This document shows positions 28,351-31,300 of a stretch of DNA of 64,000 nt, piece by piece. A program made the position numbers and the translations under genes. Location of the stretch: positions 164 to 64,163 of the forward strand of contig CAYYFQ010000003.1 of NCBI GenBank assembly GCA_964471475.1, in the 5' to 3' direction. The DNA comes from an uncultured Gammaproteobacteria bacterium. Lineage in GTDB: Bacteria > Pseudomonadota > Gammaproteobacteria > CAISUE01. How positions within the stretch are numbered: position 1 is the stretch's first letter; the number at the start of each line of letters is the position of its first letter. The notes under the pieces were generated by a model, which was not told the DNA's origin, searched no databases, and saw nothing but the letters and a program-made list of their open reading frames with translations.

Positions 28351-31300
28351 CTAAGTGTTCTTAAAATTATTTCTTGGTATCAATATTCTAGTTTCGTCTT
28401 GGATTGCGGCACCTCTTAGTGAAACATAGTGTAAACCTACATAATAACCTATATAGAGACAATGTTCTTTATCAGGATTAATTACGGTTGGCTGCTCAAC
28501 ATCACTTCTTATAATGATAAAAGTCATATCCATTGTTCTTGCTAAAGCACTAATCATGGGGTCATCTACCCATTCACCATCCTTATAAGCACGCCTTATG
28601 TAGCTTTCGGGATTGGCTTCATCAAGCGCTTCAATAAAAGGCTTGAACTCTTCTGAATGAGTTAGCATAAAAGCTGCAGCACGTTCTCGAAGTTGTTCAT
28701 AAGAAACATTTTGTTCTATATTTCTTATTTTTAACTGGTCTTCCACAGCATGTAGAAAGCAATTACCATCATGCCAAACAAGTCGGTCTTCTATGGCAAA
28801 ACCATATCGTGTGGCTTGGGTAAGAAGTAAGCTTGAGCTTCCTACATTCTCTCCAGATGTTGCTTGAGACAAATGCAAAGCTTGTTCTAAATCAAGTTCA
28901 TATTTAATCCGCTCTAGATTAATCAATAAAGTAGAAAGCTTAGCCATATCATGAGGATCGATGGACCCTGTATTAAGCTTTGCTGTCGCAAAAAACGGCA
29001 TAATTTGTGAAACAGGTCTTTTTGAAACGGGTATTGAAGGCAGCAAATCCGTCTCTACCTCAACTATTTTCTGCTCTCCTTGCTCAAGAGCACATTCAAA
29101 ATCACTAACTCTTAACCATTCAAATAATTCTAACAATAAAGATACGGCCTGTACCGCAAAAATTTCGGGAATTAAATTTTGTGCATCTACATCAAAAGCT
29201 AAAAAAGTGGTTAATATTAATCCATTACACAGTAAAAAACTGCAATAACATGCAATTTTTTGGATAGCTGAATAGGCAAAAGACTGACCCAGGTATCTAT
29301 TTAAAAGCGTCCGTAGCGAATTAATTAAACTAATGCCAATAAAAAAATACGCACTAAATCTGACGGAACCAAAAAATGTACTTTCAATAAGATCAGGTAT
29401 GGCTTCGGTGCTGATAAATAGCTGAGTTAATTGTTCTCCTGAAATTGCGCTTAATACAACGGCTGGGATTGCAGCGAATGAAAGTGAAGTCGTCATCCCC
29501 AAAACGCCCATACTTAAAATATTTTTATATTGGCTACCGGCTTCAAAACGACTCATAATGAGGCTTGATACGGGGCCTATTATCGAACCACTCAAATTAA
29601 CGAGGTCAAAAGCACTGCGCGCTACTGCGTATCCTACCAAGTCCAAAGCACTACTATCCTTTGAAGCAAACAAGGCAGCTGTTAAGAGATAATTACTCAA
29701 TGAAAAAAATGGCGTATAAAGATATCTTCCCATATCCGCCCAATAACGTTTTATTAATGGCCAGGGAAAGTTTCTAAAGAGTGGGTAATGTCGCAAATGA
29801 TCTTGTCGATAAAGATCCAACATATAAAAAGCAAACTTGCTTATACTCCCTATACTCAACGCTATTCCTAAATTTTGACCATTTAAATCTCCTTTTTCAT
29901 TAAAAAGAAAAGTAGATAACAATGCCGCCCCAGCTTCCATTGCAGCACCGAATGCCATCATGCGGCGCTCATACACTATGGAGTAAAATCCTTCTAGCGT
30001 AATACTGCCTAAGGCAGGGATGGCGCCAATCATATGGGTAAAGGCTAGTAAACTCCAGGCTTGTGTCAAATCGGATTCCATCCCAATCGCCTCACCTATT
30101 TGCTTCGCTAGGCTGCCATAAACAAATAAAGGAATAACCATACTCGTGCTTAAAAATAAGCCTGCATTAAAAGCACGGCCTACTTCATCTGCATTATTTC
30201 GCGATAAAGCAACATTCAGATAGTTGGCAAGCGGCGTATTTAAGTGTTGGGCAAGAGATGAAACCGTCGATACCACTGTATCATCAAGGACAAAGGCGCC
30301 GATTAAAGCAAGTGAGTTGCTGGAAAGCATCCGCAAGATGAGCAATTTTTGTGTTAAATTCAATACACCGACTGCTGTATAAGGCAGTGAAACCTCAAGA
30401 CCTGAATGCCAACTACTGTCTATAAAATCTCGACGACATGTAGCTTTGAAGGTGCGCCATAGCTGTTTGATATGTAAGGCATGCTTTCCTTTTCGTCTTG
30501 CAACTTGTTGCAATCGCTCCTCCGCGCGATCAACGTGAATTGCCCCTGCCTGCTCGAGATCACTGTTCGATGCAGGAACAATATCTAGTCTTAAACTTAA
30601 GCAATCTCGCAAGTAAGCCATCGACATCGTATGCGTGGATAAACCATCCAATGCAGTTTGCCCATCATGATCTCGAAGATTGATATCAATACCACGCGCA
30701 ATTAAAAAATTCGCTAAATGAATATGTCCAAACTCAATACTATGATGCAACAAACTTTTTCCTTCTTCATCTTGGACATTCAACAACTGATGGGCTGTTT
30801 CCGATAAAATGCGCCTAACCTGATAGGTGGCGCCTCTTTTAGCTGCCAACAACAAATTATGACGATCATCACCTATGCGATAAGCATTTAATGCATCTTC
30901 AGATAACAAGCTTGGCACTAAGCGATTTAAAATATTTTGCCAAGGCTGATCAAAGACTTCAAAATGCCCGCACGCAATATCAGCAAAATGGATAGGCTGG
31001 GATTCAGCGAAACAATGTTCCAGGCCATTAAATAAACTATTAAAACCCCAGGCAATATTGGCAGCATACTGATTAGCAAGCGAGACCACATGTCCTTGAC
31101 ATTTGACAAAAACGATTTTCTCAACCGCTTGAATCTTTTCTGCTTGATAGGCTAACATCAGATTCTCTACATGAAATGAGATGTCGGTGATACGTTGCGC
31201 CACATCAAATTGATTAGCTAACTCAGGATGTAGTTTAGCTAATAGATGATTGGTGAAAAGCTTCATGAATGGGTAACCCACCTCATCTGCATAAGTTTGA

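Follow-up and report, generated by a model that had tools for sequence, protein, structure and literature searches.

What is a membrane domain doing inside the polypeptide of a peptide synthetase? The question is raised by a 64,000-nucleotide stretch of DNA from an uncultured Gammaproteobacteria bacterium (GenBank assembly GCA_964471475.1, contig CAYYFQ010000003.1, positions 164 to 64,163; hereafter the window), which encodes a nonribosomal peptide synthetase (NRPS) of 5859 amino acids (aa). In the last 1050 residues of this protein Pfam finds a thioesterase (TE), ankyrin repeats, ~440 residues without family assignment and an OTU domain, in that order. A preliminary description of the window had placed an exporter-like domain, with loop motifs resembling the MATE repeat, in the unassigned region, at 29120-30440. 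We agree with this view, since the predicted structure and profile comparisons give good support to a complete, very divergent MATE-fold (MOP superfamily) transporter domain of 12 helices. With a probability of roughly 60%, we read it as a divergent exporter placed in the termination module, which would tether the assembly line, take the product from the TE and export it by alternating access. The NRPS gene and the C-terminal features of its product are as follows, TM denoting a transmembrane helix and AF2 an AlphaFold2 prediction.

28351..45930, minus strand: NRPS open reading frame (ORF), 5859 aa, a single uninterrupted frame in the ORF list
30886..31608, minus strand: type I TE for chain release, aa ~4775-5015 (Pfam PF00975, E=6.4e-16)
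30631..30873, minus strand: ankyrin repeats, aa ~5020-5100 (Pfam Ank_5, Ank_2, Ank_4), optional in the family
30433..30630, minus strand: linker with two short amphipathic helices before TM1 (AF2), partly predicted to be disordered
29113..30432, minus strand: predicted 12-TM MATE/MOP-fold domain, aa 5167-5606 (AF2, Foldseek, hhalign, hydropathy)
30160..30216, minus strand: cytoplasmic loop motif NVALSRNNADEVGRAFNAG between TM2 and TM3, aa 5239-5257 (sequence, hhalign)
29506..29565, minus strand: cytoplasmic loop motif SLIMSRFEAGSQYKNILSMG between TM8 and TM9, aa 5456-5475 (sequence, hhalign)
28411..28794, minus strand: OTU-family cysteine protease, the last domain, aa ~5713-5840 (Pfam PF02338, 54.7 bits vs a cutoff of 23.3)

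Fold and topology of the membrane domain

The AF2 model of the domain was built from an alignment of 13 homologous sequences and has a predicted local distance difference test score (pLDDT) of 91.4 and a predicted template modelling score (pTM) of 0.87. It contains 12 long helices across domain residues 24-463, with TM1-6 forming an N-lobe, TM7-12 a C-lobe and residues 233-246 the central cytoplasmic loop between the lobes. Hydropathy averaged across the 13 homologues also gives ~12 hydrophobic segments, arranged 6+6 around the central loop. The twelve hydrophobic segments in two halves that had been noted earlier are thus borne out by two methods, rather than the far fewer helices that would have spoken against a transporter, and the AF2-defined limits essentially match the earlier span.

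The topology follows from the distribution of lysine and arginine, of which there are 13.6 per sequence inside compared to 3.9 outside, or 8.1 compared to 3.9 when only internal loops are counted. By the positive-inside rule, both loop motifs lie on the cytoplasmic side. As the synthetase is cytoplasmic, an N-in topology is expected, and the counts agree with it. In the resulting model, the domain inserts from the cytoplasm and returns there after TM12 (N-in/C-in). The OTU domain would then be on the cytoplasmic side of the inner membrane, as would the synthetase with its TE and ankyrin repeats.

When the predicted model was searched against the PDB with Foldseek, 52 matches were obtained at E<=0.001, and the best 50 of these 52, which were listed, are all MOP transporters. 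MATE proteins head the list (E=2e-8..1e-5, template modelling score (TM-score) 0.65-0.78, ~450-477 columns), and WzxE and MurJ come after them. The best match is NorM-VC (9rsj_A, E=2.3e-8, TM-score 0.72/0.75); CasMATE (5xjj) reaches 0.74/0.78, and NtMATE2, human MATE1 and PfMATE are also among the matches listed. The sequence identity to solved MATEs is 9-16%. The top TM-scores go to outward-facing structures, and the model itself shows an open, V-shaped MATE-like state.

Profile comparison points in the same direction. Using hhalign with a MATE profile made of three E. coli sequences (MdtK, DinF and YeeO), the family gave a probability of 67.9% in local mode (E=4.9e-5, 309 columns) and 77.7% in global mode (E=2.3e-6), the latter over 427 colinear columns across both lobes. 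These probabilities are modest because the MATE profile had only three sequences; the 12-TM control MdtH, from the MFS family, gave 0.2%. The motif NVALSRNNADEVGRAFNAG was aligned to the MdtK TM2-3 stretch AQLNGSGRRERIAHQVRQG, and SLIMSRFEAGSQYKNILSMG to the MdtK TM8-9 stretch, so the two loop motifs of the preliminary description exist and have counterparts in a known MATE. The two motifs occupy equivalent positions in the two lobes. When the N-lobe was compared with the C-lobe, hhalign gave a probability of 1% (E=0.054), which is not significant, yet the alignment had the expected register, with the 'SR' loop motifs paired. Internal duplication was dropped as a sequence-based argument on account of this low probability.

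Individual family members also approach the curated MATE model. Pfam MatE (PF01554, gathering score 24.9 bits) has sub-threshold matches in 3 of the 13 homologues, at 21.7, 20.5 and 10.1 bits. One such match lies in the N-lobe (homologue residues 42-171 to profile positions 7-133, E=1.8e-4) and another in the C-lobe (residues 271-359 to positions 13-99, E=4.2e-4), both in the correct register. Together with the AF2, Foldseek and hhalign results, these matches support the exporter-like MATE/MOP domain first suggested for the synthetase, and the MOP relationship on which that suggestion depended appears both in the Foldseek list and in the full-length, colinear hhalign alignment. The relationship to MATEs is a remote one, drawn from structure prediction and profile comparison. 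Two other matches in the membrane region, to Pfam DUF1189 (E=1.4e-3, below cutoff) and to CrcB, were treated as noise from hydrophobic segments, and a phmmer search of PDB sequences with the window domain found nothing relevant.

Domain order and recurrence of the fusion

A Pfam scan of the NRPS in three pieces showed that the protein starts with an ankyrin segment and continues with four condensation-adenylation-carrier (C-A-T) modules and further C-type domains; its C-terminal part has the order T, TE, ankyrin, 12-TM domain and OTU protease. In the TE, the motifs GWSMGG (Ser 4846), LILIDS with the Asp and CGHFEVF with the His can be read from the sequence. A carrier domain with a PP-binding Pfam match is thus followed by an alpha/beta-hydrolase TE with a Ser-Asp-His triad, as in an NRPS termination module. 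The TE is family-specific and is conserved jointly with the membrane domain, directly upstream of it in the homologues. Ankyrin repeats between the two domains are seen in the homologues P0003 and P0007 and were undetected in P0002, P0004 and P0005; NCBIfam matches of the window protein to Legionella ankyrin effectors are far below cutoff, cover only the ankyrin repeats and were set aside.

We modelled the segment from the TE to the membrane domain as one chain (843 aa, 10 sequences), which gave a pLDDT of 84.9 and a pTM of 0.82, with residues 331-364 at a pLDDT below 50. As this pTM exceeds the expectation for independently placed domains, the model suggests that the TE is confidently placed relative to the membrane domain. 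The amphipathic helices of the linker are residues 2-6 and 11-21 in the model of the membrane domain itself.

Among 1.84 billion representatives searched exhaustively with phmmer, 14 clusters were found besides the window protein (15 in total), at 29-43% identity. None of these 14 homologous clusters consists of ordinary MATEs. Metagenome or SRA assemblies are the source of all homologues. The window protein itself is in the public collection as an identical 5859-aa NCBI entry, on a contig of 128,633 bp, and forms a singleton cluster. In 9 of the 9 full-length homologues with a detectable TE (P0002, P0003, P0004, P0005, P0006, P0008, P0010, P0011 and P0012), the membrane domain stands directly after the TE, sometimes with ankyrin repeats between. 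The host proteins are either large NRPSs, such as the 4096-aa P0008, which is preceded by a polyketide synthase (PKS) of >4700 aa, or small proteins with fatty acyl-AMP ligase (FAAL), amine-oxidase, carrier and TE domains (P0003, P0004 and P0010).

The family includes a compact sub-type (L091 536..6774; P0004; L086 225..6801), in which a flavin amine-oxidase-like domain, a FAAL-type adenylation domain (PF23024), a TE and the MATE-fold domain are distributed over one or two proteins, without condensation domains and with a carrier domain in P0004. Its small size would make the sub-type a tractable model of the TE-MATE module.

Two apparent cases of a separate gene were considered and rejected. 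P0013 had the appearance of a free-standing MATE-like gene beside a FAAL-TE gene, but its ORF begins inside an ankyrin repeat (L086 4700..5100), and the FAAL-TE ORF upstream ends in a different frame ~30 nucleotides earlier. P0009, likewise taken for a stand-alone gene, begins inside a TE domain. Given these start points, both are probably frameshifted or fragmented fusions, and on the present sequence evidence the domain has not convincingly been found on its own.

These data also bear on whether the fusion could be an artefact, in which the NRPS was joined to an adjacent transporter gene through loss of a stop codon, chimeric assembly or read-through in the annotation. The source is a draft contig, the protein is a singleton cluster, and P0013 and P0009 have the appearance of stand-alone genes. 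Against this, the reading frame is open across 17.6 kb, the junctions show no change in GC content, and P0013 and P0009 resemble frameshifted fusions, as their ORFs start inside ankyrin and TE domains. Furthermore, ENA, JGI and Logan assemblies contain nine metagenomic homologues, independent of one another, with the TE-(Ank)-MATE order. This independent recurrence weakens the artefact explanation, which we regard as very improbable.

Other searches returned little. Word-indexed searches found no homologue with the domain as query and no more than 2 proteins when the family profile was used, and with the OTU tail as query they did not find close relatives. A pattern scan with a 4-sequence profile found no relatives in 185,579 GTDB species genomes or in JGI metagenome contigs. 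Of two other genes, an aspartase-like one had matches of just 51-68%, spread across many phyla, and an exact look-up with ParA pointed to a Logan contig of 1.5 kb. The window and the homologous loci L002, L085, L086, L090 and L091 have a GC content of 37-40%. This low GC content, the ankyrin and OTU domains and the lack of a match in the GTDB pattern scan together hint at a single lineage that has been poorly sampled and may be host-associated.

The OTU domain that ends the window protein, on which the preliminary description is silent, matches a curated hidden Markov model (HMM) and has both catalytic loops intact, HDGNC with the Cys and GLHY with the His, so that by its sequence it qualifies as a member of the OTU family. 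Its nearest solved structure is human OTUD3 (4bou, E=4.1e-7), with DGNC and HY aligned. Since twelve helices with N-in topology precede it, the domain is predicted to face the bacterial cytoplasm, and a eukaryote-type OTU protease at the cytoplasmic end of an NRPS may point to further processing or to a host-directed function. A possible counterpart is found in P0006, a metagenomic NRPS of 3337 aa (L090, gene 3877..13890), in which a 293-aa tail (residues 3045-3337) follows the MATE domain. This tail has OTU-like motifs (PADGHCCYSA, WGGPADLEVV and AHHFEV) and a Pfam OTU match at E=0.12 only, and it suggests, at the level of sequence motifs, that the MATE-OTU combination is recurrent.

A proposed coupling of release and export

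The membrane domain carries a set of invariant or near-invariant polar residues within its helices, namely R57 (TM1), D73/D74 (TM2), E170 (TM4), E189 (TM5), K222 (TM6), D256 (TM7), R318 (end of TM8) and N426 (TM11) in domain numbering. R318 lies in the TM8-9 motif SLIMSRFEAGSQYKNILSMG and is invariant in 13 of 13 sequences. From these conserved buried charges and from the fold, helix number, topology bias and recurrent TE-to-MATE order established here, we infer that product export coupled to chain release is the most likely function; transport by the domain, its substrate and its driving force belong to this same inference. For the export or resistance function proposed in the preliminary description, this means that the MATE fold and the position after the TE were found, and that export or resistance itself is a matter of interpretation.

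In the mechanism we propose, the fusion would tether the PKS-PKS-NRPS assembly line to the membrane and bring the TE active site beside the transporter cavity that opens to the cytoplasm. On release, the product, which is probably a lipopeptide or a polyketide-peptide, would immediately be captured by the transporter. Alternating access would carry it across the inner membrane or into it, powered by an ion gradient through the conserved buried-charge network of the N-lobe. Export and self-protection would in this way be achieved without a separate transporter gene.

The ion coupling may differ from that of canonical MATEs of the NorM and DinF subfamilies, in which a conserved TM1 aspartate (D36 in NorM-VC, whose equivalent we take to be D32 in MdtK) binds the cation and further acidic residues lie in the C-lobe. 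In the hhalign alignment, of low confidence at the level of single residues, MdtK D32 aligns with the hydrophobic I55, and the near-invariant R57 is two residues further along TM1. Classical Na+/H+ coupling via the TM1 aspartate is therefore not supported. A different coupling site is possible, as there are other invariant acidic residues in TM2, TM4 and TM5 (D73/D74, E170 and E189). Proteins of the DinF and PfMATE type use acidic residues of TM1 and TM5 in the N-lobe, and judging from the conserved residues an N-lobe ion-coupling network is plausible here too.

The loss of the canonical aspartate, with an arginine nearby, is also what a flippase of the Wzx or MurJ kind might show. In this alternative, which has the same MOP fold, the domain would use a flippase-type mechanism to carry a product that is amphipathic or linked to a lipid through the bilayer, instead of extruding it by cation coupling; in one version, the TE would transfer the chain onto a membrane lipid, which is then flipped. 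Cavity arginines are typical of MurJ, WzxE and MurJ are strong structural matches (9g9p_A, TM-score 0.67/0.77; 7wax, 0.67/0.63), and the PKS or FAAL modules in the clusters make it probable that the products are lipidic. However, MATE structures are 2-4 orders of magnitude ahead of Wzx and MurJ in Foldseek E-value, MatE and not MurJ or Polysacc_synt is the sole Pfam family touched by family members, the domain has 12 helices compared to 14 in MurJ, and several invariant acidic residues of the N-lobe fit ion coupling. We consider a flippase unlikely on balance.

Several points nevertheless weigh against a release-coupled MATE exporter. The fold assignment depends on a structure predicted from only 13 sequences. 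The window protein has no MatE, MurJ or Polysacc_synt match in Pfam or NCBIfam at E<=10 and so falls outside these families by the curated models, and the family HMM finds no MATE among PDB chains at E<=10. In the comparison with MOP families that had been proposed as a check on the domain, the hhalign probability to the MATE alignment is 77.7%, and the window protein has no Pfam or NCBIfam MOP match. The interface between the TE and the transporter is taken from the pTM of the joint model alone, the alignment of MdtK D32 with I55 leaves the classical mechanism without support, and a cytoplasmic OTU protease has no part in a picture of release and export.

Genomic setting and known systems

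The genes around the NRPS show how the cluster is bounded and which other exporters are within reach.

45991..53649, minus strand: type I PKS gene upstream of the NRPS, 2552 aa, with ankyrin repeats at the C-terminus (aa ~2341-2424)
53681..63946, minus strand: type I PKS gene upstream of the NRPS, 3421 aa, with ankyrin repeats at the C-terminus (aa ~3214-3294)
28031..28107, plus strand: tRNA-Pro(GGG) (ARAGORN), convergent with the NRPS gene and marking the downstream edge of the cluster
27651..27941, minus strand: ORF read from its sequence as a putative rpoZ (RNA polymerase omega)
26846..27646, minus strand: alpha/beta hydrolase, 266 aa, with weak Thioesterase matches (E=3.3e-4, below cutoff)
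150..1934, plus strand: MsbA/HepA-like ABC exporter gene, 26 kb away from the cluster end; the window has no other exporter-like gene

The NRPS stop codon is at 28351-28353, and a gap of 243 nucleotides separates it from the tRNA gene on the opposite strand, as expected from the earlier statement that the cluster ends at tRNA-Pro. The 266-aa hydrolase past the tRNA could be a type II thioesterase or an unrelated housekeeping protein; beyond it and the rpoZ-like ORF lies a gene for a FadE-type acyl-CoA dehydrogenase. Ankyrin repeats are found at the termini of all three megasynthases, in the NRPS at aa 9-61 of the N-terminus as well as in the second segment between the TE and the MATE domain, and P0006 likewise begins with ankyrin repeats. 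These repeats may be docking elements between subunits, in place of conventional docking domains.

Between the PKS/NRPS genes and the tRNA-Pro boundary, and in the visible part of the cluster as a whole, there is no gene for a separate transporter, so the earlier claim holds that none accompanies the fused domain there; a link between the distant MsbA-like gene and the cluster is not evident. That gene does enter into another explanation, namely that the domain is a decayed, transport-dead MATE fold which anchors the megasynthase, perhaps with its OTU and ankyrin parts, at the inner membrane as a scaffold, and that an unlinked transporter exports the product. The ABC exporter at 150..1934 could be such a transporter, or another could be encoded in the upstream part of the cluster, which extends beyond the window. 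The extreme divergence from functional MATEs, the lack of a curated HMM match and the lost TM1 aspartate would also suit a decayed domain. An anchor, however, needs one or two helices, whereas clusters with only 28-43% identity have retained the full two-lobe fold of 12 TMs, along with the invariant charged residues within helices and the MATE-typical cytoplasmic loop motifs, and the model is a confident, open V-shaped one with its top TM-scores to outward-facing structures. This conservation of the full fold and its buried charges weakens the case for an anchor, which we find distinctly improbable.

If the domain is an exporter, the wider arrangement can be given a tentative reading, which may well prove too broad. 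T-TE-(Ank)-MATE(-OTU) would be a previously undescribed release-export module, in which the substrate is channelled from the TE into the attached MATE domain, and the membrane domains would form a new MOP subfamily. In some members, a cytoplasmic OTU-type cysteine hydrolase attached at the C-terminal end of the transporter would act further on the product or the synthetase, and the module, as far as seen to date, would belong only to a low-GC lineage with eukaryote-like ankyrin and OTU domains, taken as host-associated.

A search of the open-access literature found no relevant report of an NRPS/PKS-MATE fusion or of ankyrin docking domains, though such reports may exist elsewhere. Biosynthetic clusters comparatively seldom carry a MatE gene (PMC7849407). 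Genome mining on Pfam MatE would miss an exporter class such as this one entirely. A covalent TE-transporter fusion offers one genetically tractable polypeptide, in which the geometry of release site and cavity is solvable and the fused transporter can be mutated without polar effects, and it may serve as a design principle when pathways are engineered to secrete what they make.

The domain can be compared with four groups of known systems. With the MATE family (NorM-VC, PfMATE, DinF and MATE1/DTX; PF01554) it shares 12 TMs in two six-helix lobes, an N-in/C-in topology, TM-scores of 0.65-0.78 over the full length and loop motifs that align at TM2-3 and TM8-9. Those proteins are free-standing, whereas the domain lies inside a 5859-aa NRPS; the cation-coupling Asp of TM1 is not conserved in it, with R57, D73/D74, E170, E189 and K222 present instead. 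The Wzx and MurJ flippases also have the MOP fold, with TM-scores of up to 0.77 on the target for WzxE and 0.57-0.70 for MurJ, and Wzx has 12 TMs as well. They rank below the MATEs, MurJ has 14 TMs, and Pfam detects neither MurJ nor Polysacc_synt in the domain. The window shows no sign of a glycan or undecaprenyl context.

A parallel among MATEs is ClbM from the colibactin cluster (PDB 4z3n; Foldseek rank 17, E=3.2e-6), in which a MATE fold likewise serves an NRPS/PKS pathway. After export, the colibactin precursor is activated in the periplasm by the ClbP peptidase (PMC9889268). Export is thus tied to a protease step in that system. However, ClbM is a separate gene product, whereas the transporter in the window is fused to the TE, and ClbP, an S12-type serine peptidase, is periplasmic and not of the OTU type, whereas the protease attached here is a cytoplasmic OTU cysteine protease.

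The physical coupling of release and export is a long-standing question that has so far been approached only via non-covalent cases. For PpsE and MmpL7 of M. tuberculosis, a physical association of synthase and exporter that couples release to export has been argued (PMC1238737), and a physical association with the cereulide NRPS has been argued for the ABC transporter CesCD (PMC7527721). As in these cases, the window protein brings the final synthase module into physical association with the exporter in a manner that would couple release with export. The difference is that MmpL7 and CesCD are of the RND and ABC types and are separate polypeptides from their synthases, whereas in the window protein the association is covalent and the exporter has a predicted MATE fold.

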